Source of the DNA: Vicugna vicugna
Taxonomy: Eukaryota
Direction of reading: 5' to 3'
Assembly (NCBI GenBank): GCA_013265495.1
Contig: MU058065.1
Coordinates: forward strand, 4,810,976-4,874,975
DNA: 64,000 nucleotides
Positions 2,655 through 58,595 of the stretch are shown piece by piece. Under the pieces are notes generated by a model, which was not told where the DNA came from, did no database searches, and saw nothing but the letters and a program-made list of their open reading frames with translations. Numbering within the stretch: position 1 is the stretch's first letter; the number at the start of each line of letters is the position of its first letter. The translations under genes and the position numbers were made by a program.

Positions 2655-3490
2655 TTGCTCAACATTGCTTATCATCAGAGAAATGCAAATTCAAATCACA
2701 ATAAGATGTTACCTCACACTTGTCAGAATGGCTGTCATCAAAAATTCCACAAAAAACAAATGTTGACAAAGACACGGAGAAAAGGGAACACTAATACACT
2801 GTTGGTGGGAATGTAAATTGGAATGGAAAGCAGTATGGAGGTTCAGCAAAAAATTAAAAAGAAAACTACCATATGATCCAGCCATTACACAGCTGAGTAT
2901 ACATCTGAAGAAAATAAAAACACTATTTTGAAAACATACTCGCATCCCAATGTTCACAGCAGGATTATTTACAATAGCCAAGATATGGAAGCAACCTAAG
3001 CGGCCATCCACATGTGAATGGATAAAGAATATGTGGTACATATATCCTATGGAATATTATGCAGCCATAAAAAGAACAAAATTCAGCCTTTTGCAACAAT
3101 GTGGATGAACATAGTATTATGCTTAATGAAATAAGTCAGACAGAGAAAGATAAATACTCTATGTTATCACTTATATGTGGAATCTAAAAAAACAAAGAAA
3201 TGCATATAAAACAGAAACAGACTCACAGATTTAGAGAACAAATTAATGATTACAGTTGGAAGAGGGAAGGGAGAGGGGTGAGATAGGGATGTGGGATTAA
3301 GAGACACAAACAACTATGTATAAAATAAATAAGCAACAAGGATATATTGTGCAGCACAGGGAAATACAGCCCTTATTTTGCAATGACTTTAAAATGGATT
3401 ATAATCCATAAAAATATTTAATCACTATGGAGTACACCTGAAAATAATATTGTAAAACAACTATCTTTAATAAAAATAAAATCTAAAAAA
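2655..3490 (+). mobile_element. LINE-1 3' end (ORF2 C-terminus, 3'UTR, A-tail)
   Basis: aaatgcaaat..cacaataagat, tggaagcaacctaag, aaataagtcagacagagaaaga; ORF 2709..3041 is L1 antisense. Confidence 0.9.
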
Positions 3491-3537
3491 ATTTCACCAC
3501 ACTTCTGAGTAAAGAAGATTGCTTACACTACCAGCTA

Positions 3538-3624: not shown

Positions 3625-6085
3625 GTAACCTGATACCATATCCAGCAAACACTATAAGAATATTAAAGACTAGCACTGCCTGAAAAACAGATGCAAAAAA
3701 TATAAATAAAAATTTAACAAATTGAATTCAACAGTATGTAAAAAGGATATATCTTAACCAAGTGAGGTTTAACCTAGGATTGCAAAGTTGGTTAAACATT
3801 TGAAAGACAATTAATATAATTTCTCATATTTAATTTAATTTAAAAATCACATTATCCTTCTTATAGACAGCAGAAAAAGCATACAACAATTTTCAACATG
3901 TGTTCATGATAAAAACTCAACAAACTAGGAATAAAAGAGAACTTCCTCCACCTGTAAAGAGCAGTTACAAAAGACTTCAGCTAATATCATACTTAAGGGT
4001 TAAAGTCTAAATATTTTCCCACTGAGATTAAGAATAAGGGAAGAATGAATACTGTCATCACTGATACTCAACATTTTACTGGAGATTCTAACCAGTGCAA
4101 TAAGGAAAGGAAAAAAATAATGAGAAACTACAGATTAGAAAGGAAGAAATACAATTGTTTCCACATATAGATGACATGATTGTCTACAAACCCAAAGACT
4201 GAAAAAAAGCTACAGAACTCATAAGGGAGTTTAGTAGAGTGGTAGGATACAAGGTCAACACACATGTATCAGTTATATTCCCACTTAGTAGCAATTAATA
4301 ATCAGAATTAATTTTTATTTAAAAACAATTTATAATGGCACAAAACATGAAATACTTAAGTAGAAACTTGACAAAAGATGTACGTGATCAGTACAGTGAA
4401 TACTACAAAGCATTTGAGTGAAATTGAAGATGACTTAAATGTAGAAGAGATTACCATGTTCATGGATCAGAGATATCAGTTCTTACCAATTGTTTACATA
4501 GGTTCAGTGAAATCTGAATCAAAATCCCAGCAAGATTTTTGGTAAGAAAATAGCAAAATAATTCTAATTTATACAAAAATGCAAAAGGCATAGCCTAGTC
4601 AAAATAATTTTGAAAATGAAGAACATATTTGGACGAGTAATTTTGTCCAAACTTTATGCATTGATACCCTAACTGAACTGTAGTTTTTGCATTGGTCTGA
4701 GATATTTCTGCAATAGATGTCCATCATAAAAAAATGCTATCAAATGTGTGTGTGCATACAGGGAGAAAAATGGTAAAAAAAAAAAAAGCATATTGATAAA
4801 TGGAATACTTTAAAAAACTCCTAGAAGATGGGATAGAAGGATGAAATTTAAGTGACCATGGGTTTGGTGATAATTTTTAAGTTATAACACCAAAAGTGTA
4901 ATACAAGAAAGAAAAAAGATTTAAGTTGGGCTTTATAAAATTTAAAACTACTGCTCTGCAAAAACAGTGTTAAGATATTAATAAAAAAAACAGACTGGGA
5001 TAAAATATTTGCAGAGTAGATATCTGATAAAAGACTGGTGTCTAAAATGTACAAAGAGCTCTAAAGCTCTAAGAAAACAAGCAACTCACTTTTTTTAAGA
5101 AGTCAAAAGATACGAACAGAAATCTCACCAAAGGAGATACTCAGACAGCAAGCACGTGAAAAGATGTTCAACATTATATGGTATTAGGGGATTACAAATT
5201 AAAGTAACAATGAGATAACACTAGAAGCCTATCAGAGTAGTCAAAATCCAGAACACTGACAACACCAAATGCTGGCAAGGATGTAGAGCAACTGGAATGC
5301 TCATTCATTGTTGATGGGAATGCAAAGTCATTTAACTATTTTGGAAAACAATTTGACAGTTTCCTAAAACACTAGGCACACACTTACCATTTGGTTCAGC
5401 AATCATGCTTCTTAGCATTTACTAAAGGAGTTGAAGGCTTATGTCCACAGAAAACTTGAACAAAGATGTTTTAAGTAGCTTTATTAATAATTTCTAAAAC
5501 TCAGAAGCAACAAAGATGTCCTTTAATAAGCAAATGAATAAACAAGCTATGGAACATGTGTGCAATAGAATATAATTCATCAATAAAAAGAAATGAGCTA
5601 TCAACCACAAAAAGATATGGAGAAGACTTTAATGATATTTCTAAGTAAAAGAAGCCAGTCCGAAAAAGCTGCCTACTGTGTAATTCCAACTATATGACAT
5701 TCTAAAAACAGTTAAACTATGGAGACAGGAAAAAGAACAGTGGATATCAGGGGTTAGGGGAGAGGAAGGGATGGACAAGTGGAGTGCAGGAGAATTTGAG
5801 GGCAGTGAGTTTATTCTGTATGATACTGTGATGGTGGATGCATGTCAGGTACATTTGACAAAACCCATGGAATGTACAAAGAGTGAACTCTAACATACCC
5901 TATGCAGTTTAATAATTAATAACAGCATATCAATATTGACTTATCAGTTGTAACTAATGCACTACAGTAATACTAGACGTGAAAAATAGGGGAAATTGTG
6001 GGTGGGGGTGAGGAGTTACGTGGAATCTCTCTATATATTCAGCTCAATTTTTCTATAAATTAAAACTCCTCTAAAATGAATCCTA
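3625..6085 (+). mobile_element. Older L1M element, degraded ORF2 and 3'UTR
   Basis: RT-region remnants (gatgacatgattgtcta) and L1M-type 3'UTR. Confidence 0.85.
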
Positions 6086-6337: not shown

Positions 6338-6409
6338 ATTTTATCAATGTTACATTAATTTAATAATATATATTTTATCAATGTTACATTAATTTAATAA
6401 TATATATTT
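6338..6409. repeat. 34-bp tandem duplication
   Basis: attttatcaatgttacattaatttaataatatat x2. Confidence 0.9.
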
Positions 6410-15287: not shown

Positions 15288-15470
15288 TCATACAAGGAAA
15301 TATATTCAATACCTTATAATAACCTATAACAAAAAAGAATATAAAAAGGAATATATATATATATGTATAACTGAATCACTATGCTGTACACAAAAAAACA
15401 CAACATCATAAACTGATTATACTTCAATTTTTAAAAAATTAAAAAGAAACAGAACAAACAAACAAAAAAA
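15288..15470 (+). mobile_element. 5'-truncated L1 tail with target-site duplication
   Basis: actgaatcactatgctgtacac..A-tail, flanked by ccttggtct on both sides. Confidence 0.8.
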
Positions 15471-16373: not shown

Positions 16374-16547
16374 TTTAAGAATTAATCACAATGTGAATAA
16401 TATGTGAAGTTAGCTCACAGTGAAAAAAAATGTGACAAAGAATATATGTACGTTCATGTATAACTGAAAAATTGTGCTCTACACTAGAAAATGACACAAC
16501 ATTGTAAAGTGATCATTACTCAATAAAAGAAGTAAAAAAAAAAAAAA
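16374..16547 (+). mobile_element. 5'-truncated young L1 tail
   Basis: gttcatgtataactgaaaaattgtgctctacac..poly-A; flanks aaagcacgactg and aaagcactgactg. Confidence 0.75.
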
Positions 16548-17708: not shown

Positions 17709-18135
17709 TTGGACCTGAAGAATGTCATTCTAAGTGAAGTGAGCCATAAAGAGAAAGAAAAATACCATATGATGTCATTTATACGTGGAATCTTACAAAA
17801 AAAAAGACAGATGAATTTATTATTTACGGAACGGAAACGGACTCATAGACATAGAAAACAAACTTATGGTTCCAGGGTTGGAAAGGGGGATGGGAGGGAG
17901 ATATTGGGGATTCAAGATTTGCAGATACTAACTACTATACATAAAATAGATAAACAACAAGTTTCTACTGTACAGCACAGGGAACTATATTCAATATCTT
18001 GTAGTAACTGACGATGAAAAAGAATATGAAAATGAATTTATGTATGTATATGTATGACCAAACTTCTATGCTGTACACCAGATTGAAACAGCGTCGTAAA
18101 CTGACTATAATTCAATGAAAAAGAGATAAAAAGAA
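17709..18135 (+). mobile_element. L1 3' end
   Basis: ORF 17709..18011 resembles the L1 ORF2 end (DLKNVILSEVS); acagggaactatattcaatatcttgta. Confidence 0.9.
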
Positions 18136-18410
18136 AACATCTTTAAGTAGCATCTCTAAAACTTGCCACATCTTGCGTAGCCACCATTAATAGAGACTAA
18201 CTCTAGGAGAAAACATATTAGCTAGCTTTGCATTGTAAAAAACCTATAACTAAATGTAATTGTCTTGTGTCTTACGTATTTCTTTTGGGGTGAGACAGCT
18301 CCATATTTACTGTAAAACTGGCACAAAAACTATTTTAAAAAATCAAAAACATGACCATTTCATCAGTCTGCTGTAGCTGTAGAAAAAAAGCTTGTTTTCA
18401 TTCATTTTAC

Positions 18411-18762: not shown

Positions 18763-19872
18763 CTGACAAAAATGCATTCCCTTTACTGCTGATCAAGCGT
18801 GAACAAAGAAGAACCCATCTGGGGTGGAGGAAAATTAGAAGCATGATTCTAAGAAGAATGTCTACTCCCTGACTCCAATACCCAAATGTTTTCCTTCTAC
18901 TGGCCCTATTTAGCCATACTATTTTTCTAGTTTTGTTTTTAGATTGTTTGTTTAATCTAGATACAGTTTGAATGACTAAGTCACATTCACAGACATGTTA
19001 CATGGTGGCACCAATTCCATCAAAAATAATAGAAATATGGATTATGCACTAATTCTACATAAATGATATTTGTTAATAAAATTATGTAATTTGAAAGTAT
19101 AGTTTTTCTTATTTTACATGCACACAAAAGTTTCAGAGACATTTCTTTGGGGGAAATTTTTTAATTGGCAGGTTCTCTTCCAATTTCAGTGTTAACTTTC
19201 TGTGAATATTAGATGTGTTTTCTTAGCTAATGTTCTTTGACACAAAGAATAGACCCATTTATTTCTAAAACAGAAAAGTAACCCAGTTCACTCTTTTATC
19301 AGTGAGAGTATTAAGGTTCTGAAAGGTTTGTTAACAATAAGGGAAGAGGAATTTCTGGGAACTCTTTGTAAACTAAAAACATTCAATAGGCAAAAGAAAG
19401 GAAAAACAATAATAATATTATATAATATTAATCACTTTTTAGTTTGTGTTTGAAAATTTATGTCTGCTTTTTTTTAAGACATACAGAATAGCTGAAGTAG
19501 AGATTAACTGAATGGTTTTAAATTAACATGTGTAATACGATTGTTTGGTAAGGACTACTTAGATTCTGTGTTAGGAAAGATTCTGAGGCTTTACAATAAG
19601 GTTCTGTGATTGATTAGTTATGTCTTTTCTGGTTCCAGGAATGAGAAAAGTATGGCACATGCCATTCTTTGTTGGGCTTGATGTAACTCAAAATAAAAGC
19701 AAAAGAAGAGACTGCTTAAAAATACTATGGTTTAATTTTGATCATGTTACTATACAGGGTATAATACAGGGTATAATTGCTGAACTTTGTGTTTTCTATT
19801 TTCCTGGGAATGTGGTGGATGGTTTGTTTCAAGGAAGTTTTAAATGTGTTTTTGGACGCCAGAACAACTTAC

Positions 19873-19993
19873 ACTGGTCAGACAAGGGAAGTGTAATGGA
19901 AGTGGCTGTTATCTAATGATTTCCGGCAATCTTTGGGGCCTTCCAAAGAAACATATCGTTCAGGAACAATTCTAAGAGCATTTCTAAGAGCAG
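19873..19993 (-). pseudogene. Unit 3, GREB1 C-terminal domain exon
   Basis: tcttctctggttag acceptor, gtaagt donor; ALRIVPERYVSLEGP. Confidence 0.55.
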
Positions 19994-20724
19994 CTAACCA
20001 GAGAAGACCCCCATGCAATTCATTCTTGGAAGGTCTGCATTTAAAGTTATATACCAAATAAAAAAAATTGTGATTTACTGTGAGGGAAGTCCCAAGGGAT
20101 AGTCTTTGAGGATAGCTCTGAATTGTGGCTATTTTTTCTAGTCTGTAAGTAATGAGGACACTGACAATTGTTGCAAGGGAAACAAAAAGAATTTACAAAG
20201 AGTGTGTTGTAAAATTGCTCTGGACATAGACATGGTGAAAAGATAATGCAGTCTTGACAATCAAGGACACACAAGTTAAAAAAGAAAGAACTCAGCCAAA
20301 AATATCACAGCATATAATTGTAGGCAGTTGCTACTAAAAAATTTTTCTTATACTCTGAAAAAGTAAAATACAGGATAGGAGATTTGGAGAATCAGTTCAG
20401 TGATTCAATATTCATATAGACACTCAGAAAGAAAGAATAGAAGTCAGAGGAGAAACCATCAAAGAACTAATGTAAGATCATTTTCCATGATTAAGAGGTC
20501 CATTGAGTTAGTGTTCAGCCCAGTGGAAGAAAAAGGATCCACATTAGTGCCCAACCTTATGAAATTTTTTCAAAGAGTAAATTCTAAAATCTTCCAAGAA
20601 ACCTAAAAATGGTACATTAAATTAATTAGAAATTAGAATGCCTTCATGCTGGTCATGGCAATCTGAGAAGTTAAGAGACAAAGGACTGGTACCTTCAAAA
20701 TTCCTAGGCACTTATCTCCCCCAA

Positions 20725-21355
20725 CTGTCCCAGCTATCTACTGCTGTGTAACAAACCATCCCAATCCCCCAAGTCATGTGTTTTGCTCACAAATGTGCAA
20801 TTTGGAAAGGTCTTAGCAGGGATGGCTTGGCTGCTCCTTGGGATGGCTCTGCAGGTCAGGAGGATCTGGTTCCAAGTGAGTGTACCCATATGGCAGATGA
20901 TTTGATACTGGTTACAGATTCCTCTCTATGTGGGTGTCTCTGTGGGGTGATTTGTGTGTCCTCATAGCATGCTGGCTGCGTTGTGAGAGCCAAGTGTACC
21001 AAGGGAAGACAAAACAAAAAAAAAACAAGTGAAACCTGTATAACCTGTGTGTCCTAGCCTTGAAGGCCACATAGCGTCACTTCCCCTATAGTTATGTTTG
21101 TTCAGATTCAAGGACAAGGAACAGAACCAAGGGAAGACAAAACAAAAAAAAAAACAAGTGAAACCTGTATAACCTGTGTGTCCTAGCCTTGAAGGCCACA
21201 TAGCGTCACTTCCCCTATAGTTATGTTTGTTCAGATTCAAGGACAAGGAACAGTGATCCAACCACTCTGTGAGAAGAATGTGAAAGTCACGTTCTAAGAG
21301 CTTGTGAGATAGGAAACATTGTTTTAGTTATTTTGGGAAAATACAATCTGCCACA
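20725..21355 (-). mobile_element. MLT1-type LTR with an internal 128-bp duplication
   Basis: ctgctgtgtaacaaaccatccc...aaatacaatctgccaca. Confidence 0.7.
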
Positions 21356-25652: not shown

Positions 25653-27480
25653 CTAAATCTAATATATTTCCTAATGGACACTTTTCAATTTTTTCCATAA
25701 AACTGAAAAAAAAACCCATAAAAATCAGCCTTTAATTCCAGTTAGGCAAATTGATAATGCAGTTTTAACTCAAGCTTCATTTTAGATTAATTGATCAGAA
25801 TATTCTAGTTGAAGGAATGATGGTTTATTGGTCCCTCGGACCTGAAGTTATTCTTCAATGCCCTGACAGACATTTTTTTTTAATATCCTTTCCATCCACT
25901 CTAAACTTCCTTTTTGGGGTCCCTTCTGCTAGTCTCCTGGGTGGTTGGGCTACACCGTAGTGACGGTGTCTATGGCTTCCCCAATGTGGTAGTTTTGTAG
26001 GTTCAGGATTCCACCTCAAACTTAATTATCAATGTCATATAAAAAGGAGCTAACAGTCCTCTCCCATCTACCCCAAGCCACACCTTTATTTCACTTTAAC
26101 AAGTCATCGAATCTGACATATAAAAAGGTCAGAACTATTGCTTCAAAGCCTGGATGGAAACATGACTTGTGTCTCTTGCATGACATGCATTTAGATGGTG
26201 ATGTCAGATTAAGGAAATGGTATTGACTCAAGCACTTTGCTGAGAACTGCAGGAGAAAGGCACGTGGGCAGCCTTTCTACCAGGAACCACAAACTCAGAC
26301 AACAACGGACACTCACTCAGCACTTGCTGTGTGCCGGGAACTCCTCCTAGGACTTTGCGTGTAGTGAACTCAATCCATTATCGTACACATTTAGGGGTTG
26401 GGTATCATTGCTCTTACCATGTTAGAGGTGGGAAAAATTAAAGCAAAGAGAATATTAAGTAATTTCCCCCAAGTTTGCACCACTAGTAAATGATGGCAGA
26501 GGGATTTGCAGCCAGACCGTGTGGCACTAGAGTCAAATTTATTAACTACGACTCAGCCCTGAGACTCTAACTTCCCACAGCCGAGGCCAAGTCAGAGGCG
26601 TGAGCAAAGCGGACATGTCCAGCTCTTCTCGCCATGTGGGGACACAGACCTGGTGCTGGCATATCTTCCCACATTGCAAAGGACACCAAAGCCCTGATTT
26701 GTTCATATAAAGTCTCTTGCTTCTAAAATGTTAGGTGTTGATTTTAAAGTGTTTTTGAACACTTGTGTTATGGAAAACACAACACACTTCTGAGGGCCAC
26801 GAGTTTGATACCTTTGTTTTAGACACATAGTGTGGCCCCTTGGAGTGCAACATAAATGGCTCGAAAAGCTGTTCATTTATTTGCAGAATAAAAATTTCAG
26901 AACTGCTGAACTGAGGCCCACCCAGCTCATCTGGGCCAGCGTCCCATCCCAAGATAGATTTTCCTGAGTCTGTCAGCTGCTTTCCTTGTCTGCTCACTAA
27001 AATTGTTAGAAAAACCTCCCGCCTCTCGTATCAAAATAGTCCTTTTGGTGTTTGATTTCAGTGATCTCCCTTTTGCCCTCTGAAGATACACCGCTAAGAC
27101 AAACCTTTCTTCTACAAAATACTCTTAGATTTTTGAAGGCAGCTAACATAAGTCCTTCATCTTCTATTTCAAATTCCACAATCACAGATTCTTCAATAAT
27201 TTCTGTGACATGGTTTCAAAAAATTTAGTCTTTAAAGAAAGGCAAACAGTAACCTTTATCAAAAATCTATTATATGTTGTTTTGATGGTTTCCAAATTCT
27301 TTTTTTTTTGATTGACAAACCCCTATCATAAAAGTATGTGGAGTATAACTGCCATATATATGTTACTTTCTACATATACAATGTACATATGTAACTTTAT
27401 ATACATATAATATATTTGTTATTTTATAATTTGTATAGGTGTTAACTATTACTTGCTAATATCTTTATGCACATTTAATT

Positions 27481-31031: not shown

Positions 31032-31322
31032 CCGAGCATGGATGCAGACAAGCAAACATGCTGGGAAACACTCTCGCTCAGAAGATCAGGCTGAAGGGGG
31101 TCAATGTCAGTGCACCGGGACACTTAGACTCTCAGCAAATACAGCCACGCCTCTGGGACAGTCATGCTGTCACCTTTCATAGTGGCAGAGTCTGCTGCAG
31201 TGTTGTCTGTCACAATCATGCTGTTCTATTATCAGTTGTTCAGATCAAAGTGCCACCAGGATTTTGGGGTTCAAGAATATGCTCTTTATAAGTAAACAAC
31301 CAACCCCTGAGGCTGGAGCTTT
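31032..31322 (-). pseudogene. Unit 2, GREB1 C-terminal domain exon
   Basis: ttgcttttcag acceptor; SLRGWLFTY..GGTLI*TTDNRTA*L*QT and MTVPEAWLYLLR resemble GREB1 FSGLLLY..GATLCVICQDRSSLRQT..LELEDEWQFRLR; 3' edge uncertain. Confidence 0.65.
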
Positions 31323-32099
31323 CTGAAAAGCAATGGGTTTCAGATCAGGAGGATAATGGGAGGAGAAGTGACAGGTGCCTGATTCGGGGGAGTGACTGAT
31401 AACATCAACTCATTTCCCTCCTGCTAAACATATAAACTGCCAATGGACCTAGTGCAGGGGGCTGTGGGTGAGTGGATGTCCTGATCGTGGCAGCACCCAC
31501 TGAGTTCATGATCTAGCTGGAGACGTGTCTATGGGGGAAGGGGCTGGAGGAAAAAGCGAACTGACGAGAGAACAATCCATCACAGGGAGACTCACGCATT
31601 GGTTGTGCTCTTTGGTTATCCCTGGACTACTCAAGTTTTGGTGCTCAAAGGACATGCTGGTGACACTGCAGTGAGGGGTAAGGATATACTGGGTGTCTAG
31701 GGAGATACAGAAGTGAAGCGAGCAATGTGTCAAAGGGAAGGAGGCAGGGGAAGGAAGCAGCCCGTGGATGCACTGCTCTGTGTGCTGTGCGCAGACAGCT
31801 GCAAGTCTTGAGCAACCGGAGTCCTGCATCCTTCTGAACAGCCTCCTGCCTGCATCCTCCACTGATGCAGATGAGCCAAGCCTCTTCCTCTGCCCATTCC
31901 CATCACCACCCGTACCCAGCACATTAGCCTTGAGTGCCCAAATAACCTAGTTCATTCCAGTTTAGCAGAAACTTATCCTAAAGCACACTCAGACTTCTGC
32001 TGTCCATTTCTCCTGTGTATGTACATATATATATATATATGTTAGTCTCACAATTTTAAACATTTTAGCTGCAAATATATAGATCTAATTATAGACTAT

Positions 32100-34250
32100 T
32101 TATAGTCTGTGTTTTGATTATCTCATGGTGCATTAAAATTACCCTCAAAGCATTGTGGTTTAAAGCAAGAATCATTTATTTTCTCATGAGCCTGGGTGTC
32201 AGGAACTCAAAGCAGGCCTCATTGGGACAATGTCTTTGTTCCTCGTGGTATCAGCCAAGGTCATTCACTCGTCCGCTTCCAGCTAGAGGCTGAGTCAGGC
32301 TGGCCAGTTAGAAAGGCTTCACTTGAATGTCTGGTTTCTTGTCTTTCTGCACACAGCTTCTCTCTCTCTTTCTATGTGGCTAGCATGGGCTTTCTGACTG
32401 CATGGGGATCTCAGTGCAGTTGAAGTTTATTTCAGCTTTTCCTTGCTAGGCAGCAAGAAATAATTTATAATTATTTCTCATTGCGGAGAGGTTTCTCATA
32501 TGGTTGCCATCAAACATCAGATGCGGTGTGGTTACCCTAAGGTCTAACTGAGCTGAGTGTCCAAGAAGCTGAGGCCCGTGGCTGGCAGTCGGTGCTGGCA
32601 GCTCAGCTGTCATTGTAGCTGCACTGCCTACACGTGGCCTCTTGAGTGCTGCTACGTTCTCCCGTCAGGAGAGCTTGGTTCTCAGCGGGAGGATCCCAAG
32701 AGTGAGAGCTCCAGGAGACCTGAAGACAATGTTGCTGAGCTTCTTGCGACCTGGCTTCAAAGCAATGCAGCATCACTTTAGCCACCTTCTGGTTTTAAAT
32801 GCTTTTTAATTTTATTCTTTATTGAAATGCAGTTGACTTACAATGTTAGTTTTGCATGTCCAGCAAAGCGATTCAGCTATACACATACAGATATATTTTT
32901 TTCAGATTCTTTTCCATTATTGCTTATTATAGGAAACTGAATATAGTTCCCTGTGCTATATAGTAAGTCCTTGTTGCTTATCTATTTTATACATAGTAGT
33001 GTGTCTCTGTTAATCCATATGGATTTTTTTTAATTGCAGCGTCATCAGGTTACAATATTGTGTCAATTTCTGGTGTACAGCATAATGTTTCAGTCATACA
33101 TATACATACATATATTCCTTTTCATATTCTTTTTCATTATAGTTTGCTACAAGATATTGACTATAGTTCCCTGTGCTATACAGTGTAAACTTGCTGTTTA
33201 TTTTATATATAGTAGTTAGTATCGGTAAATCTCGAACTCCTCATTTATCCCTCGTCACCCCTTTCCCCCTGGTAACCATAAGTTTGTTTTCTATGTCTGT
33301 GAGTCTGTTTACGTTTTGTAAATAGGTTCACTTGTGTCTTTTTTTTTTTAGATTCTACATCCAAATGTACATATAACACCAAAATATATATCGTATTTTT
33401 CTTTCCCTTTCTGACTTGCTTCACTTAGAATGACAATCTCCAGGTCCATCCTTGTTGCTGCAAATGACATTATTTTATTCTTTTTTATGGCTGAGTAGTA
33501 TTCCATTGTATGTATATGTATCATCTGTCGATGGACATTTTAGTTCTTTCTATGTCTTGGCTATTGTAAACAGTGCTGCTATGAACATTAGAAAGTATGG
33601 ATCTTTTCAAATTAGAGCTTCCTTTTAATATGTGCTCCAGAGAGGGATTGCTGATCACATATATAGTAAACACAGTTTTAGTTTTTTAATGGAATCTCCA
33701 TACTGTTTTCCATAGTGGCTGCACCAAACTACATTCCTACCAACAATGTAGAAGGCTTCCCTTTTCTCTACATCCTCTCTGGCATTTATCATTTGTGGAC
33801 TTTTTAATGATGGTCATTCTGACCATTGTGAGGTGATACCTCATTGTAGTTTTGATTGTTTATTTCTCTGATAATTAGCAATATTGAGCATTTTTTTCCA
33901 TTTGACTTTAGCCATTTTCTGTTGGTCAAGAGTCAGTTACAGGACAAGTGCTGATTCTAGCAATGGGAACTCTGCACAGACATGAATAGTGGAAGGGGTG
34001 GCCCATGGCATAAAGAGATACCTTTGATGACTGACACCATGGACTTCTTACATGGTGGGTCACTTTCAAGAAGCAACATTCTAAGAAAAGCAAATGTAGA
34101 AGCTGCAGGTTTCTTAAGGCCTGGTCTCCAAGTTACATGATATGACTTTTGCTGCATTCTACTGGGCAGTCAGGTAGCCCACATTCAAGGGGAGTGGGGA
34201 CAGGGACCCCATCACTCCATAGGAGAAGTGGCAAACATTTAATCCCCCAA
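32100..34250 (-). mobile_element. MLT LTR pieces interrupted by an L1 3' end (about 32790-33900)
   Basis: L1 antisense 3'UTR and ORF2 end flanked by actttagcca(c/t)(c/t)ttctg direct repeats. Confidence 0.8.
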
Positions 34251-34506
34251 GCTCTCTGCTAAAATACTTAGATATAGGGCGAGAAAAGTCATGGAAATAT
34301 TTCAGCCATTCTGATACTAGTTCTTTAATTGAAATAAATATTGATACATTATAAAATAAATATTTTTATGTGAAAAACATTAACATCGACTTACACTTAT
34401 AAACTTTCTTCATCAAAGTTCCATGGTCACTAGAAATTTTCTGAATAGGGGGATTGGATGACAGTTTTACACCTTATTGGTAAGTCTAATTTCGTTGTTT
34501 ATTTAC

Positions 34507-34638
34507 CTTTAGGAGAATTTCCCTAGTTTTGATTTTGAAGGGTTTGGGGCCTAAATAAACAGATAATCACTTTTAAATCTTTGCTAATGAACTCATTTTA
34601 TTTATCAAATGCTTGACTCTTTTTATTACAGTAAAAAC
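34507..34638 (-). pseudogene. Unit 2 exon, 132 nt, phase 1-1
   Basis: ctttatttctcag acceptor, AAG|gtaaat donor; FYCNKKSQAFDK*NEFISKDLKVIICLFRPQ. Confidence 0.55.
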
Positions 34639-36034
34639 CTGAGAAATAAAGTGAACATAGCAATGACACTGAAAAATTTCAAACTAACTTTTGTCCTTAG
34701 AAATGTAAGGTGCCAGTTTTGATTATTTTTATTCAAAGATTTTTTTTTCTACTTGCACTTTTTAATAAGACTTTGTTTAATACTTCTAAATCAAGTTAAA
34801 ATGCCCCCTCTAACATAAAATCTCATAGAAACTGAAAACTCTATTCTTATCAGATATTTTAGAGATATTTCTTCACTCCATGCATACACAAAATATTACC
34901 CAAAGCACACTTTTAAAACAAGGATGAAATAGAGATATGGAATCAGATGATAAGTGATCTTAAAGTTACATTCATTCATTTATTCATTCATTCAACACAC
35001 ATTTATTGAACATTAGCCAAGTGCTGGATGTTAGGATCCAACAAAATATCAAATAAACATCCTTCTCTACTTTATTATGATTTAAGTCTTTATATTTGAG
35101 GTTTTAAAGTATCAGTAATATACATTAGCATAAGGGATGAAATCTGTAGCTTTCACTGCTTATTTGAAATGCCATCATTATCATGTGCTAAATGATTATA
35201 AATACATGCCACTGATTCTAGGCTTCATGATACTATTCCATTAATCTGTCTTCTTTTACTCTTCCAATTACCTTAGCTTTAAACTGTGGCCCAGTTTGAA
35301 TTTTTTGTTTTTGTTGTTTTAACATGTAGTAGCAAGGGGCACACTGGTGATTAAAATTTAGAGTCTGAGGTCATCCTGTCTTGGTTTGAATCTAAGCTCC
35401 ATCACTTACTGGCTGTTTTACTTTAGACCAGCTACATAGTCTCTTCTAATGTCAGTTTAATAACCTATATAATATTAATAATAATATTTACAGCATAGAA
35501 TTTAATAAAAATGTGTTTGTATTAGTTAAGAAGTTATAAATGCTATTACAAAATTAACCAAAAGTCTCAATGGCTTAATAGAGTCAAAGGTTATTTCTGG
35601 TTTCTGTGAAGTCCAGTGGGTATTCTGTTTGGGCTGGTAACTTTCTACAGGGCTATTCAGGAAGAGGTGGTCTTGTGTGAGAGAGAAACACTAGATCTTG
35701 CAGTGATGCTTATCACTTCCATTCACCTGTCATTGGATAGAATGAGGTCACATGGCCCCACCTAACTACATAGGAACCTGGGAATGTTGGAGGGCCCAAA
35801 CCAATCTCTGCAAGAATATATAAAATCCCTTTCAAAATGTCTGATACAAAAGTAATTAATAAATATTAATCATTATGGTTATTACTACAGACATTCAACA
35901 TGGTCCATCCCTCAGTCCTAGACATTTATAAATGGATGAGAATAATGAAGTGTGGCAAGTGCCATAATGTGCGAGAACAGCAGGCTAAGAGATCCCATGG
36001 CCAAGTCCAGGGAGAGCTAGAAATGGTTACATTC

Positions 36035-36660
36035 TGATGGAAGCAAAATCAAGCAGGACCCTGCAGGACCTTCCCAGGGACAGACCTCCCTCTGCCCCCT
36101 CCACGTGCCCCACCTCTTATTTGATTTCCAAAAAGCAAATTTAGTCAGAGAAGTGAGAAAATGCAGAAACAAAGAAAAGCAGTCAAGCAACACAAAATAG
36201 GAGTAGTTTAGCCACATAACAAAGCCAAAGTACCTTTAATCTCTCCTCAAAAGCTATAGATAATATTCTGAACCATATTCTTGTATTGTTTTGCACATAC
36301 TAAAAGCCACACCAGGAGGGAGAAGTTAAGTGCATGACCATTAACATGTAGCTCCAAGACCAGCTGGAACCTGAGGATTGATAATGCTGACCCTTGTGAC
36401 CTCACCTAGTTACCTTACCACCCACCAATTAGAATATTGTACATGAGCTTATTACACACCCCATGACCCTCTCTCACTTTGTATTTTAAAATCCTTCTCT
36501 AAAAGCCAACAGAGAGTTCAGGTCTTTTGAATATGAGCTATCCAATTTCCTTGCTTGACTTCCTGTAATAAACGCTATACTTTTCTTCACCACAGCCCAT
36601 TGTCAATGGACTGGATTTGTTGTGCCTCATGTGAATGGACCCAAGTTTGGTTTGGTAACA
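36035..36660 (+). mobile_element. ERV-type solo LTR
   Basis: TG...CA ends, aataaa signal near 36567, ggacccaagtttggtttggtaaca terminus. Confidence 0.65.
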
Positions 36661-37819
36661 GAAGTAGCACTTAAATATACATCTAAAAGATAAGTAAAAT
36701 TTGGCCTGTTCAAAACAGGGGGAAGAGAGTTCTAGGCCGGGAGACTCAAGGTCTAGAAATGAGGGAGAAAGTGATGAACTTGAAGAATTTAGGTAAGTTA
36801 GATGTGGCTCTAGTAGATTGTGGAGGTAGAGAGTTGAATAAAGAGACTTGAGAAAAAGAAGGGAACCAGGCAAATAGGTCTTACAAAACATGTAAAATTG
36901 TTTTAACTATATCCTGAAATCATTTGTGACTGGAGAAGAGAGGGGGCTTTAATGGGGAATAAATAGTGACAACATGAAACATTGTGAGATGAAAAATGGG
37001 TCCCAATGAATAGCATATTTAGAGTAAGAACTGACAAATTATAGGAAAACATTGTGGGTTCCTGGGCATAGTATAGTCAACATGATAACTTTTGAATGAT
37101 AGCAAGTGATCATCTTGGCTTTAAAATGGATGAGGAGTAAAACTAGACACATTAACTAAGAAGTTGTTGGAATTTGGCTAGGATGCTATTTGAAAGCCTA
37201 GTGAAAATGGAAGAAAAAATGAGAGGCAAAAAGAAAAGACCACTTCAAATAGAAACAATTACAAGACCAAATTCTTCATTCAAAATTATGTCAAAATGTG
37301 TAATTAAAATCTCAATCCATAGAAAAACTCAACTGTGTATTTCATAATCAATTTCTCAAAACCTGTTTTAGTCCATAAAAATTTCTTTAGCATCTACTAT
37401 ATGCCTGGCATGGTATAGGTGCTTGACATTAAAAAAAATGATAAAATGTCAGTCAAATCCTCAAAGAGTCCAAAGTCCAGTGGAGGAATCTAGTGAATAC
37501 ATAATTAGACTACAGTCTTGTAAGAGCTAGGGCAAGCTTCTGTAAGGACACTAGACCATTTGGTTTATTCTTTAGTGACATATTGAGGAATATTTCACAG
37601 TATAGGGACATGTGAACTGGGTTTTGAATTAAGACTTCGCAAGAAAGAGGAGAGAAGGGAAAGTACATCCCAGGAAGAGGGAACAGCATGTACCAATGTC
37701 CAGAGATGAAGGGCAGGTTAGTACTCAAGTGTTCATGGAGTGCTTAGGAAGGACTTGGCACTCCCTAGCACCATTTGAAATTCAACATCTCATCATGACT
37801 TTACTTGGCCAATGGATTA

Positions 37820-38700
37820 CGTTTCAAAATGATAAGGGCCACTTCTGGGCAGAAGACTTTCAAAGCCAATCATGGATTCAATATCCCTTTCTCTCTTCCC
37901 TGAGGACTGGTGATACTGTAGATAGTGAAGGATCCACAGCTCGGGACTCTGGATGAGAAATCTATTTGAGCACAGTCTTCTGTGACTCCAAGGCGGATAT
38001 GTAGAATGAGGGGGAAACAAACTTTTACCATTTTAACCCACTGAGATTTGGGGGAATTGCTTCTTACCATGGCATGACCCAAGCATTCTGGACTCATACA
38101 AAAAATGGAAACTTGAAGTGAAGTACTATGAAAAGAAAACCCTGAATGAGGCATCAAGGATACTGCTCAAGCAGAGAGTGACAAGGAAGCTATTACTGAA
38201 GGCAAGAAAGATGTAATAGTCAACTGTGAAAACGTTAGTAAAATCGCCTCCAAATCTCCAGTAACTAGGGTGGCGGATTATGTATTGAACACATTCAGAG
38301 CCGGAGGTGAAGAGACTGCAAAACAGCAGGCATGTGTTGCTTGCTGTTGGTAACGCTTGGTAAAGTGTATTGCCTGGAAGGGATGGACTCAGAAAACAAC
38401 TGGCAAGTTCGCCATCAGTCGAGAGGGAATCGAGAGTGTCCACGAGTTAAAGTTTAGGATTTAAATCAGCAACTGTTTTTAATTCCTTAACAACAAAAGA
38501 TAAAACAGAAACATCTTAAAGCAGCAGAGTCAATCAACTGTATTATTTCTGCAAAGGTAAATGGGAGGGTCTGGGCATCATGCCAATTATTAAAATCGTG
38601 GAATGAATGAAGGGATCTCAGATTAAAGGTCTCACTAAGAATGTGGCGTCCATTCAGTTCATTCAATTGAACAAAATGGCTCAGAAAAAAAAGATTAAGT
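37820..38700 (+). mobile_element. MLT1 LTR plus MaLR internal remnant
   Basis: ttaacccactgagatttggggg LTR end followed by MLT-int-like sequence. Confidence 0.55.
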
Positions 38701-38989
38701 TTGTGGAAGGGTGGGGCCTTAATTTAAACCATTCAGATAGTGTAAGTAAACACTATCAGAGTAATGACATAGTTATAGAATAATAACTTTTTCAAGTTTT
38801 GATTATTTATCAACCTGAACATTTTATAATTGAATTTTTTTTAAAAAATCCCTTACAAATAAAAGAACATCAAGATAATAAGAATAATTTCATTATCCCT
38901 CAATAAAGACAATTCGTAAAGTTTAAAAACCTTAAACCTATGATTAATCCGCATAAATACAGTTAAACATATACATGAGAAAAACATAC

Positions 38990-39203
38990 CACTTGTATCT
39001 GCAATATTATATAATCTTTTTAACTCTTCATAGATCTTTAGTACTGCACTTGCTGATATTAATCTAAAACATAATTTGGGTTCTGATGGCAAACCAAAAC
39101 ACTGATTTGGCAAGATTGCATATTACATATTTGCTGTCCTGTCACTCAGGAAATACTCGGAATTTGTAAAAGCAGGCTGTTGTGTCTCAGAGTTGGTATG
39201 TAC
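38990..39203 (-). pseudogene. Unit 2, TAGT C-terminal exon
   Basis: ctcccttttcacag acceptor, G|gtatgt donor; YIPTLR and DSKYVICNLAKSVFWFAIRTQI in different frames. Confidence 0.6.
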
Positions 39204-39709
39204 CTGTGAAAAGGGAGACTTTGTTGAGTTTTGGGAAGAAATACTCGAGCCCTAGAGAGGTGCTTTTTAAAATGCTTTGTTATGAAACTATGGGTATTTC
39301 TCAGAATTCTCTTCAGATAGCTTTTTTATGTTCTTTTCTACCAGACCGAAATTCCTTCCCTGGAGAATTGGAAATAGGTTATGGGCAAATTATGAAAATA
39401 ATAATGCAGAATCCCTTACAGAGTTTTTTGGGGTTTTTTTGTTTGTTTGTTTTGTTTTGGAAGTGGGAGGAAGCAGATCTGGTTTTTCACCTTGAAAGCA
39501 CAGGTTGGGTCTGTGCTTCTCTTCACTTTCTTCAGATCATGTGCTTTTAAGGAGACTTAGGAAATTTGTCTTTATATTCCAACTTTGCTATTTTAAGTGA
39601 GAAATGCTGAAGAAAAAAATGCTGATTTATGACGTTGCTCAAAGGCTTCACTCTCTGGTTCATAATGTCTTAGGTGCTTTGTTGTTGTTGTTGTTGTATT
39701 GTGAATACA

Positions 39710-39927
39710 CTCTTTAAAACTCCCAGTTTATAGGCTGCACTTGATTCCCTGACTCGTCAGTGAGCATTAGGCTAACAACGTGGGGTTTCTGCAGGGGGAC
39801 CGCCACAGCCTCAGCCCAGGCGATGCACCACATGGAAGGAAATTGAAAATGTGTGCGTGTGGGGGGGTGTGTGTTTAAGGCAGGGGCGATGTTTGACTTT
39901 GAGCCCAAAGAGACAGAGGGATGACAC
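39710..39927 (-). pseudogene. Unit 2, TAGT middle exon
   Basis: ttctctcaatag acceptor; GASPGLRLWR (cf. GREB1 YALLGLRKW), then VPLQKPHVVSLML (cf. EPFSRCHVHNFII); 3' edge uncertain. Confidence 0.65.
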
Positions 39928-40221
39928 CTATTGAGAGAATCAGCAAAGGGGCTCTGGGAGAAAGACACTGTCAAAGCTAACACCCTGCAGCTACGGAGAA
40001 CTAGCCTCTAACTCGATCTAAGTGTGGTGTGGTGCTATGCTTGAAGCTAAAAAAATTTTAAAATGATGTAAAACACGTCCACATGCTTGGCACACAGCAA
40101 GCATTTAATATAATGTTCTTTCTTTACAAAAACCACTGTTCTAGCACGTATTTCTTGCATGTTAATACACCAAGTGATAATGGGGCTCTGAAACACTCAT
40201 CCAGAACCTCCCACCCGACGC

Positions 40222-40223
<2 letters not shown>

Positions 40224-40254
<31 letters not shown>
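40224..40254. repeat. (CA)n microsatellite
   Basis: Directly visible. Confidence 0.95.
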
Positions 40255-40255
<1 letters not shown>

Positions 40256-41137
40256 CCTGCAGGATAATTAATGGATGGAGTGATTGGGACCAAATGCTTG
40301 CTTAGTGAGTTCAGTCCCCGGTGCTTTGTACATGCAACTTGAAGAGGAGGCAATAGCTTACCAGGTGAAAAGAAGAGCAGATATCAGAGAAGAGGAGCAA
40401 TTACAGATGCGAGGCAGTGCATAGAAAAGTTCAAGGTGAGAAGAGGCTCTTACTAAGGTCAATCTCAGGGCACTAGGGACATTCATCCTGAAGCTGGCTA
40501 GTGACAGGTGCCAGACACATAACCAACACATAATAAAGGATGCCAGGGACTGGTAGGGCTTAGCCAGAAAATCTGGAATTCTCTAGAATGGTGGAGAAGG
40601 AGGCAACTACAAAGTTGGTCTAAACTCAGGGAGATGAATTATTGGGTTCATATCAGAAAGATGTTTCCACTCCATGGAAACAAGTAGAACCAAGGTAATG
40701 CCAGAAACCTGATGGCACCCAACCCAAACGAAAGGAACCTAGAGAGGGCTGAGGACTATTTCAGTCTTGAGAGAAGAATTAAATCTCTCACCAGTACTAC
40801 ACAGACAGCTCCAATGTATTTAGTCACAAGCGATTTTGTTTTTCTTAGGTTTTTCCCTTTGATTTCTATGAATTTTAGTGAGGTAGGCTTCTAAACCTCC
40901 AGAATAAAGATAGGTATCATTGTGTCAGGGGAAGCCGAAGACTTCCCACACCTCTCCCCAGTCCTATGCAATCTCTTGCACTGCCTCCTTTCTGACTTCA
41001 TTCTGCCCTTATTTTGGCCGGTGTAGGGTAGATAATACCTTAGATTCAAAGGTATTTACCCTTCCCTTTAAATCAAGATGTCATTAAACAGTTAGCATCT
41101 TTTAGGGGGCCAGGATTATTAAAGCCAACATGCTCAC

Positions 41138-41670
41138 AGGATAACTCCTTGACACGATGCTTGTGTTTTAATAGGGATTTCAGTGGACAATGCCTTCCCC
41201 ACAAAGGAATGGATCCAATGGTAGATGTTAGATATCTTGGGACATGTATTTCTTTTAAAATGCCTTACATTTCAGCATGTGGTCATCCACCTGCTCTACT
41301 CATGTGTAGCTCTATGGCCACTGCCGTAGAGATATGCCTCCTGGCTTTGCCCTGAAGTTCCAAAATCAATCCTCCAGACTTGTTCTGGACATTGATCTCT
41401 TTGGAGAATCTAATGGTCAGGGCTCTATGTGGGTCTCTTGCTGCCGCTCAGAGTAACCTCGTGCCTTTCCACTATAGTCTTGTGCCTAAACTGTTCTCCG
41501 CACCCATGCGATTCCAGTGTTAAAGCAACTCGGGGGAACATACACAATGTACGTGAAGCCAACCAAAATGTTGGTTTTAACTCACAGGTGTTAAAACAGG
41601 AAAGGTCTTATACCGTAAGATTTTAATACCATGCGATGTTTCATTTTATTGGGACATTCCTTGGCATAGC
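41138..41670 (-). pseudogene. Unit 2, TAGT N-terminal half exon
   Basis: ccttttatag acceptor, T|gtgagc donor; ordered motifs FPVLTP, RHKTIVERHEV, GKARRHISTAVAIELHM, VEQVDDHML, HCPLKSLLKH across frameshifts. Confidence 0.75.
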
Positions 41671-43312
41671 CTATAAAAGGCTCTTTAAAATATTGCCCAC
41701 CCACTTTTGCCCGGCATCATTCCTAACTGGCCTCTCCAGTTCAAAGACACTCAACTTCCCACTATTCCTTAGACACGAATGTCCCTTCTCAAGCCACTCT
41801 GTGCCTTCAGTCATCCTAGTCTCTATGCCAAAAGTTGACTTTTCTCTCATTTTCTGGAAAAGTTTTATTTCTTCTCTCAATTGAAAGCTAATGTCTTCTC
41901 TTTACAGGCTTTTCTTGCTCTGTCCTGAGTTGTACTGTCACCTGAGCTTCCACTATTTTTTATCAGAACTTGATTACATTATTTATAAATATGTATCGCA
42001 GGTATCTACTTACATGGACGCCTCACATTGCTACTCTTTGTGCTCCTAATGGGGAGGGATTATGCTTTATACAGGTGTGTGTACTATGTACCTAACACAG
42101 TGTTGACTGTGCTAGAAAAAGAACACAGCGTTTGTTGATTGAATCACTGAAAATAAATTGCAAATGTATATGTATATATAAAGTAGTCTTGATGATAGGA
42201 AACATTTGTCTTGGCATGTGGGATAAGGCACTACCCAGGGCGTGAGAAAGAAAAGAATAATTCTGTCATAAAATATCCTTGTTAAAAATAGTCACAGTGT
42301 ATTAAAAGCTGTGAAACACTTCATCTGAAAAATCACCTTTCCTACAAATTACTACTTGCCTTTTGAATAAAAGACACAGTCTCTAAAAGATGATTATCAG
42401 TTATTGAGCAATCAGAATTTTAAAATTACATTCAACCCACAAGTTGGGAGATGCCTAAGTGGGTGGAATCTGTTGAGTTCTGAATAAATTTGGCATTTCT
42501 TTATTTTCTGACATTAAGGTGCTGAAATATGCTGTCAAGCATTAACATGTTTGTTGATGGTAACTTGGCTTGGCAGATAGAAACTCCAGTGTGAGCTACA
42601 CTTTCACGATTACATTTTCATTACTAAACGCAGATCTCTATCTAAGGCCGTTTATTGCTTTGAGTTATTAGTCATATGCTGTTATCCTTGTTCAATTTTA
42701 ACAGTGGAGCTTAGCTTGAAAATCCATTTGGTAAATAGTCTATTCTATGTCCACAATCCCAAGGTGACGAGTGAACCCAAGTAAGAGTTAGTTAAACCAG
42801 ATGTTGCATATTGCAGAATTTAAAAGCCATTTAAATGCAGTGCACGTTTTGAAAGTTGTTTTAAGCGTGCAGTATATATAAATATGTATTAACTATAACA
42901 CATAATATAGTTTATAGTCAAGTAAAAGTATTATTTTGCTATTCTTTATATGTTCAATTTATTAATCTTGCTTTTGCCAATGTATTTCAAAAATTTTTAA
43001 ACCAATTATAATAAAAAAAGTAGGTGAAACTTGTAAATTTTGTGTAAAATCTTTGGCTAAAAGATGATTTTGGTCACCTTGAATTTAATTAATGAAAATA
43101 CTTTGATCAAGAATAAAAAGGTTTAAAGTGAATAGTGTCTCCTCCCCACCACTCCTCAAAAAAATTAAAAAGCAAAATGACTTTTTAATTACACTTGCAG
43201 TTTATAGCAAAATTTTTTTTTAATTGTTAGTGGACTTATAAGGGCAGCATAAATATTTCTTAAAGATGTTAGCACCACTAACAAATGCCTACACTCATTT
43301 CTACAAGTTGAC

Positions 43313-49450: not shown

Positions 49451-50450
49451 ATAAGAATGTACCAGACATTTTAAAGGTTTATCACAGCTCTTCATTTGCT
49501 GATTCTAAATTTTCAAAGCTTCTCTCTTAGTATTTATACGTAAGGAGCAAAATGCAATTCTCTCAAGAGAGATGATACATTGACTTTGATTTAAAATAAG
49601 CTGAGTGAAAAATGTATGACTCCAGTTTGATGTGGATAGCATCTTCAGAGCAAGTTCTCATAGGGATGAAATGCACAATGAGCATGAGATCACTGAAGGG
49701 CAAAGGGAAAAATACAGCAAAAGGAAAATGGGCTCAGTAAGGAACAGCCCTGGGATGAGGTCCTTTTCAAGCACTTCAGAGTTTTAATCAAGAGAGGTCT
49801 AAACATAGGAGGGTATTTTTTGTTTGATTTTTGTTTTGTTTTTTTTTACTTCTCCATCTCTGTAGTTCTAGTCAAAGGAATAAAGAACCTGTACATCTTA
49901 CCCAAATTTGCTCTCTAAAATGACAGAATTAGTTGGAAAAGTATCAAACTATCCCTTTGCCTTATATTTCTGGGTCTTCTAAAAGAAACAAAATCACAAA
50001 GTTAACAAAAGTTGAAACAGAGGCTAATAGCTCCTGTAGGGACAATGACACGAAAACATTCATAAATTAAGAGTTTCTGTTTGTATTTCTATTGTAAAGA
50101 TCAGAGTGAGGTTTTCTTGCATGAAAGGCTATACCTTGATAATAGGTGTGAAGGTAACAGTGACTGGAATTAAGATAGGAGACTTTGTTTTAAGCAAATC
50201 AATGTTTAGAACCAGTAACAGAAGATTTATCATCCTCCTAAAACTCCATCTCTCGGGATGATTGGCCCCACAGGAGCCAACCACTTGGATGACTCAATTA
50301 AATTTTATATAATTCATAATTACCCATTATGTAGACATGAGCTTCAGTTAAACATAAAGGGAAATTTTCAGATAGATCATCAGTTGGCAAAAAAAAACTA
50401 TTTATAAAGAGAATTTTAGAATTTCCATCTTGGAAAAAGTATTAAGTCAC

Positions 50451-50805
50451 AATGTTGAGGTGCTCCCAGTGACTCCTGCCCTGGCTTGAAGAGGGAGGGT
50501 GCCATGTTGGTTTGTCCCATGCCTGGATTCTACATTCAGGGCCACGAACACACACCTGCACTGGCAGAGTTTGTCTAACAGCATGGTGACTGAGACAGAC
50601 ACGGTCTCCACACAGAAGGCGGGGAAAAGATGGAGAAACAGAAGGACAAGGTCCAACTCTATTTGGGGCCAAATACTGTGAGGCTTTGGCAGAGTAATGC
50701 CTGCTTTGCTCTGCTTTTGGAGAACATGGGAGAGGAGGTCTCCCAACCCTTCTGTACCACCATCTGCCTCGACCCCACTATGGGAGCCATACCTGACAGT
50801 CATCT
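50451..50805 (-). pseudogene. Unit 1, GREB1 C-terminal domain exon (frame still open)
   Basis: Inside ORF 50447..50986: MTVRYGSH...PKPHSIWPQIELDLVLLFLHL...CRCVFVALN; degenerate donor gtgact, phase 2 into the next exon. Confidence 0.65.
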
Positions 50806-51043
50806 CTGAGAAACTGCAGTATTTTGACTTTTGGTATCTGCTATGTAATGGTATGGGAAAAATATTGCCTAAAATATAACTGTATGTTATTAAAAAAAAA
50901 AAAAGACCAGCTGGGGAATGAGTTTGTAATGGGAATGTCACTAGTACAAATTGCAAGATTAAAAACAAAACACCATAACAACCCATCCATTAACTGGAAA
51001 TAGTTGAAATGTGTAGAGTTAAGTCAGGGAGGGTGATACATAC

Positions 51044-58199: not shown

Positions 58200-58595
58200 A
58201 AACTTCATTCAAAATAGCCCCAAACCAGAAGCAACACAAATATTCATTAATAAGATGGATTAAAAATGTTGAGGTATTCATAAAGTGGAATACTATGCAG
58301 CAATGAAAATAAATGAACTATAATCACATGCAGCAACATAGAGGGCAGACATGAAGGAGTAAAGGCTGCAAATTCCATTTACATAACATTACAGAATAGG
58401 CAAAATTAATCAAGAGTAATAAAAATTAAAATAGCAGCTATCTTTGAGGAGTGGTCTTGACTACTGATGTGTTAAAAATGTGCCCTCTCTTGATCAGGGG
58501 GATAGTTACCACTGTATACATATATAAAATCCCTTGAATTGTGTATTTAAGATCGATATCCTTTGTATATGTTTAATCCTAGATTAAAATAATAA
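58200..58595 (+). mobile_element. Old L1M 3' fragment
   Basis: aatagccccaaaccagaagcaac..tggaatactatgcagcaatgaaa. Confidence 0.7.

Follow-up and report, generated by a model that had tools for sequence, protein, structure and literature searches.

A DD Motif in a Putative TAGT/GREB1-Like Relic of Vicugna vicugna Is at Best a Passive Leftover

The closest described systems to the locus treated here are GREB1 and GREB1L, which carry the domains cpSF2-GREB1 (PF20692), TAGT (PF20691) and GREB1_C (PF20267), and the TET-associated glycosyltransferases (TAGTs, PF20691) of phages and prophages, a class reportedly defined in a 2013 paper. According to the GREB1 report, D1645 and D1646 are among six residues whose joint mutation abolished activity, D1646 stands 96 residues before D1742, and H1609 stands 36 residues before D1645 (PMC7968844); a preprint gives the motifs R...DDD...EDY/F for phage GT-A enzymes (bioRxiv 10.1101/2023.12.21.572611). 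We analysed a stretch of 64,000 nucleotides (nt) from Vicugna vicugna (assembly GCA_013265495.1, contig MU058065.1, positions 4,810,976 to 4,874,975), hereafter the window, which is mammalian AT-rich DNA with L1-like fragments. A preliminary description had read in it the repeat units of a GREB1-like gene, the second of which was said to keep a catalytic DD. Our analysis suggests that the locus is probably a long-dead TAGT/GREB1-like gene, and that its DD, at best a passive leftover, has not been kept as a catalytic site.

All nine motifs of the preliminary description were found on the minus strand in the order and sequence given there, with the DD codons of QVDDH at 41287-41282 (Table 1). 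Judged by eye, the motif order presumably resembles that of GREB1. The frames along the motif path run 2, 1, 2, 0, 2, then 0, 2 and then 1, which requires five frameshifts in two presumed 3' exons (four at 41.6-41.1 kb and one at 39.8 kb), and eight stops were counted across the nine stretches, those of the GGTLI motif comprising both dots written inside it by the preliminary description and a third position. The DD itself, in frame 0, is flanked by two motifs that read in frame 2, and its own frame has a stop 4 codons upstream of QVDDH and another 8 codons past DD, leaving 16 open codons. With these frameshifts and stops, no open reading frame (ORF) able to encode an enzyme was found along the path.

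When frame 2 (41130-41669, with X for each stop) was used in a phmmer search of 1.84 billion representatives, the sole matches were P0001 (86 amino acids (aa), 65%) and P0002 (61 aa, 58%), and each cluster held two unnamed Logan members, giving four short ORF translations (P0001-P0004). These appear to be gene-caller ORFs in orthologous mammal DNA; they are known as protein only, and their insertions and deletions (indels) relative to the window were deduced from the protein. A profile of frame 2 with these relatives (alignment A1) recovered P0001 and P0002 again (2/97 candidates) and no further relatives, a homologue search with frame 2 for longer proteins gave 0/95 candidates, and in an Atlas search P0002 had no usable match and P0001 just unnamed bacterial clusters at 0.90 or below, under the recognition level. 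The BLOSUM values of the residues that differ between window and relatives equalled a neutral simulation in all four cases (P 0.19-0.60), which implies a nucleotide divergence of 15-22%. The DD is present, but the word "keeps" implies selection, and the divergence looks neutral. Frame 2 as the coding frame, open in P0001 and P0002, was rejected, since in 20% of simulations a run of 54 codons stays open under neutral change.

Two of the three testable frame joins coincided with indels of the needed phase, for which our own estimate of the chance expectation is about 1 in 4. Near 41440 the window has one base more than P0002, which reads uninterrupted from the HKTIVERHEV frame into the GKARRHI frame; the other coincidence is the two-base difference from P0001/P0003 listed in Table 1. 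From A-R of GKARRHI to DD there are 58 nt (19.33 codons, in different frames), compared with 60 nt in TAGTs; of the 160 pattern-matching TAGT domains (of 171, prophage and viral), 157 have 20 residues from the A of ARN to the first D.

In addition, a candidate second acidic site, stop-D-I-M-N-Q-R-V, was found beyond the motifs listed previously. A pattern for this site, loosened after the sequence was seen and fitting 67 of the 171 TAGT domains, has one match on the minus strand, 125 nt past PLQKPHVV, with 0.18 expected per shuffled strand; the profile score of the site is under all 240 peaks listed. The distance from DD to stop-D is about 103 codons, or 97 minus the 6-codon microsatellite, compared with 96 in GREB1 and 82 in the phage profile, and it uses the donor at 41137 and an exon start picked by eye.

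The account that we tentatively favour, with slightly less than even confidence, is that a spliced gene of the TAGT/GREB1 kind was already dead when camelids diverged from the mammals that P0001-P0004 represent, and that the DD is ancestral. While the gene lived, its DD would have bound metal and a nucleotide sugar, as judged from the family (GREB1 and the phage GT-A enzymes), and the stop-D at 39672 would represent the ancestral second acidic site. One frameshift ahead of the DD, common to the relatives, would predate the split. Today the locus would encode no enzyme, and the DD would survive passively like most bases at this level of neutral divergence. The exon limits are likewise putative, as the donor-like site is a consensus match and no clean splice acceptor was found directly upstream of GLRLWRS (39817, minus strand).

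Several results weigh against this account. Pfam TAGT (PF20691, cut-off 27.5 bits) was not matched by any single frame or short piece, by two read-throughs or by P0001-P0004, while three control TAGTs scored 162, 133 and 89 bits; GREB1_C (PF20267), present in the library, matched none of three read-through frames of 31150-31353. The spliced phage-TAGT profile was matched by 47-80 of 114 null tiles, conserved-column models were equalled by 86-207 of 224 null tiles in 12 of 12 settings, and the hhalign profile-profile probability was 0.05-0.5%. The phmmer search of 1.84 billion representatives gave no GREB1, GREB1L or intact vertebrate protein. At the G, A and R of GKARRH in the window, the two relative lineages agree on D, T and non-R, and they also have G in common at the second D; four TAGT-like motif letters fall among the 8 private residues of the window in the 32-residue overlap, in which P0002 has 6 and P0001 has 4 private residues. 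The differences at G, A and R are free of the ORF-sampling bias described below and count against the TAGT reading. The frame chosen for QVDD in the preliminary description agrees with indels at the joins HKTIVERHEV to GKARRHI and QVDD to CPLKSLLKH, but at the join from GKARRHI into the QVDD frame none of the four relatives has an indel, and this join either predates the split from them or is not real. The H-to-D spacing of 16.3 codons (18.3 from the first R), with residue correspondence set by eye, misfits the 36 of GREB1. The preliminary description aligned the DD by eye with GREB1 ISDDS, a homology that no tool has proven.

A frameshift-aware full phage-TAGT profile stayed at background level, and a core TAGT profile reached 11.5 bits compared with control peaks of 12-18. 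AlphaFold2 on alignment A1 returned a low-confidence model (predicted local distance difference test 32, predicted template modelling score 0.19), and no match was obtained in a PDB sequence search with alignments A1 and A2, by tblastn against phages, or by Rfam over the window. Metagenome scans confirmed 0/132, with 3 pattern matches, none of them window-like. In a Pfam scan of 366 of the 375 open frames of at least 52 aa (nine L1-overlapping ORFs at 32.8-33.8 kb were excluded), none exceeded a curated cut-off, and permuted SF2 helicase, Zn-binding and N-terminal domains were thus not found in the scanned ORFs, although decayed exons would escape; ten window ORFs were absent from the protein collection. 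The TAGT alignment search for longer proteins contained no named animal among the matches listed (120 of 366). The literature searched, which excluded most subscription journals, yielded no report of a third GREB1 paralog, of a pseudogene resembling GREB1 or of tandem TAGT domains. As the profiles were built from prophage and viral TAGTs, and such prokaryotic profiles may be too distant for a decayed animal paralog, these negatives lower the TAGT/GREB1 claim and do not close it.

The alternative that survives best, distinctly possible but in our judgment doubtful, is that there was never a gene, that short peptides of ancient non-coding DNA have been strung across frames, and that the DD is one of the 35 DD pairs that occur on the minus strand by chance. 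A lone DD is not above chance, and the chance of a DD 9-45 nt from any chosen point is 1-5%. The pattern G.[AS][RK] followed by hydrophobic-DD 54-63 nt on, devised after the sequence was seen, occurs once on the minus strand, 0 times on the plus strand, and 0 and 1 times in two reversed controls, with 0.09 expected per shuffled strand; profile tests independent of motif choice gave no excess over controls. Besides the negative library and profile tests, this explanation is favoured by the failure to detect repeat units, by stop depletion in the window that is nothing unusual (reversed controls give equal or lower P), and by the over-representation of motif letters among the window-private residues. 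Moreover, an exact ISDDS at 4065-4051 and HEHG at 4464 arise by chance in the same window, antisense to an L1 ORF2 relic, so that short-motif matching is risky; this ISDDS was rejected as a further unit because of its antisense position. The decayed L1 ORF2-like stretch lies at 3800-5200 (plus strand) and includes IDDMIVY at 4167-4187, which we take to be the reverse-transcriptase DD motif. Pure chance sits less easily with the indel phases, which fit two joins, and with a second acidic-site motif, absent from the original list, at about the expected distance; the profiles, being prokaryotic, would in any case miss a decayed animal paralog.

It is unlikely, in our view, that the relic is real but its unit was already degenerate (D-G, or W-L-H-V-E in frame 2) and acquired the second D in the camelid branch through one G-to-A change. 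In all four relatives, from both lineages, frame 2 reads W followed by L, which leaves only G possible at the second-D position of frame 0, so that parsimony counts one change, and the stretch from RHI to the DD site carries no indel in any of the four. Orthologs without the DD had been named in the preliminary description as evidence against its own reading, and the second D is indeed encodable in 0/4 relatives, whereas P0001/P0003 could encode the first D and P0002/P0004 could not; the conservation of DD in orthologs that marks TAGTs was therefore not seen among these four, a sample skewed to frame-2 ORFs. Because the DD puts TGA in frame 2 and the relatives were found as frame-2-open ORFs, DD-bearing lineages are under-sampled. 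Furthermore, frame 2 can be opened by two transitions, one of them TGA to TGG, and with relatives known from protein alone the root cannot be placed. On the second-D site alone, we judge the evidence of the relatives to be about even.

Selection on the DD in a still-expressed product, made from a short exon or by recoding or splicing that avoids the breaks, is very improbable: QVDD starts at a CAG/GT site, but frame-0 stops stand on both sides of the 16 open codons, the divergence is neutral and relatives lack the DD, and the 5-10% of words of 39600-41800 common to seven RNA or guessed-RNA runs count as no evidence of expression.

The preliminary description had also contrasted the DD unit with units 1, 3 and 4, in which it had found no equivalent DD. 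These units were not confirmed, as a six-frame self-comparison showed interspersed repeats only and no self-similarity over background; unit-2 pieces gave best off-target scores in the control range over the rest of the window, where age and decay could mask repeats. Since no four-unit repeat was detected, a DD confined to unit 2 cannot be evaluated. In decayed DNA, a DD in one unit and none in others says nothing on ancestral activity, and the DD is no evidence that the ancestor combined active with inactive domains. Tandem TAGT domains do occur in nature, two of them being present in 32 of 120 longer metagenome proteins (P0005-P0124, the 120 of 366 matches that were listed). Other proteins of this set are fusions to DNA polymerase, methyltransferase or helicase domains, and at the loci L121, L128 and L129 a prophage-like TAGT gene directly adjoins a gene that encodes a product resembling ParB by eye.

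Some further features of the window were recorded. At 19550-20190 (minus strand), a long stop-poor frame 2 contains ELHGG (20021), SLDNS (19919) and SLKQTIHH (19835); with SLDNS 28 codons ahead of SLKQTIHH, it may, judged by eye, be a second unit in which D-N replaces DD, and it has no similarity to unit 2 over background. GATLCV at 26822-26839 (minus strand) resembles the GGTLI motif and presumably the GREB1 C-terminus, adjoins an apparent MER-type element and may be chance. The window also contains a recent 129-bp tandem duplication (20998-21253, 99% identical), a perfect 34-bp duplication (6338-6409) and a longest ATG ORF of 179 aa (50450-50986, minus strand), which has no Pfam match and is absent from the protein collection. 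Mutually similar L1-like fragments lie at 2656-3516, 5159-5708, 15292-15459, 16399-16547, 17710-18146, 32795-33896 and 58203-58358; for the fragments at 32795-33896 the name L1 is our assumption from translated motifs. Pfam and Rfam revealed no recognisable flanking gene in the window, so that synteny is not fixable.

Table 1. Features of the motif path and of the presumed exons and intron, in window positions.
Feature	Position	Strand	Remarks
PVLTP	41600-41586	-	Frame 2; stop two codons further on
HKTIVERHEV	41484-41455	-	Frame 1
One extra window base relative to P0002/P0004	41436..41442	-	Frame 1 to 2, join HKTIVERHEV to GKARRHI; deduced from protein
GKARRHI	41351-41331	-	Frame 2; DKT[VIM]RHI in all four relatives
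QVDDH	41293-41279	-	Frame 0; same bases give a TGA stop in frame 2, where 4/4 relatives have W
Two extra window bases relative to P0001/P0003	41200..41203	-	Phase joins QVDD frame (0) to CPLKSLLKH frame (2); deduced from protein
CPLKSLLKH	41189-41163	-	Frame 2
Donor-like GTGAG, possible end of first presumed exon	41132..41137	-	Consensus match only
GLRLWR (GLRLWRS)	starts 39817	-	Frame 0
PLQKPHVVSLML	39797-39762	-	Frame 2; C5 run links GLRLWRS to PLQKPHVVSLML (span 39762..39817)
(CAA)6 microsatellite within presumed second exon	39679..39696	-	
Stop-D-I-M-N-Q-R-V, candidate second acidic (E-D) site of TAGTs	39672-39649	-	Frame 1; absent from the preliminary list
L1-like fragments within presumed intron	32795..33896		Match other window copies
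GGTLI.TTDNRTA.L.QT	31257-31204	-	Frame 1; three stops

As a speculative extension that we hold to be improbable, placental mammals might carry the ruin of a third, undescribed gene of the GREB1 clade, built of tandem TAGT and GREB1_C units and intact in some outgroup vertebrate, in which one unit alone kept both acidic sites and the others were non-catalytic binders of sugar or substrate, with camelids preserving the catalytic letters best. Should the relic be real, vertebrates would once have possessed, in addition to GREB1 and GREB1L, a further glycosyltransferase of cytoplasmic or DNA type, and an intact outgroup copy would be a second test case for the claim of protein glycosylation by GREB1-type domains (PMC7968844). 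The DD alone adds little.

Compared with GREB1 and GREB1L, the window is alike in the distance from DD to the candidate second acidic residue (about 97-103 codons versus 96), and it differs in that Pfam and phmmer gave no match, that neither a helicase-like nor an N-terminal domain was found, that the H/R-to-D spacing is 16-18 versus 36, and that stops and frameshifts break it. With the phage and prophage TAGTs it shares G.AR followed by hydrophobic-DD at 58 nt (60 nt in theirs), and its candidate stop-D...RV stands where theirs is ED...LR, but by whole profile it is at background, and neither the invariant N of RN nor an R-x-N ahead of ED is seen in it. Old unitary pseudogenes shared across placental mammals form a general class, from which the window differs in that no intact ortholog or flanking gene was found, and which it resembles in its presumed exon-intron layout, its shared and lineage-specific frameshifts and its neutral divergence.

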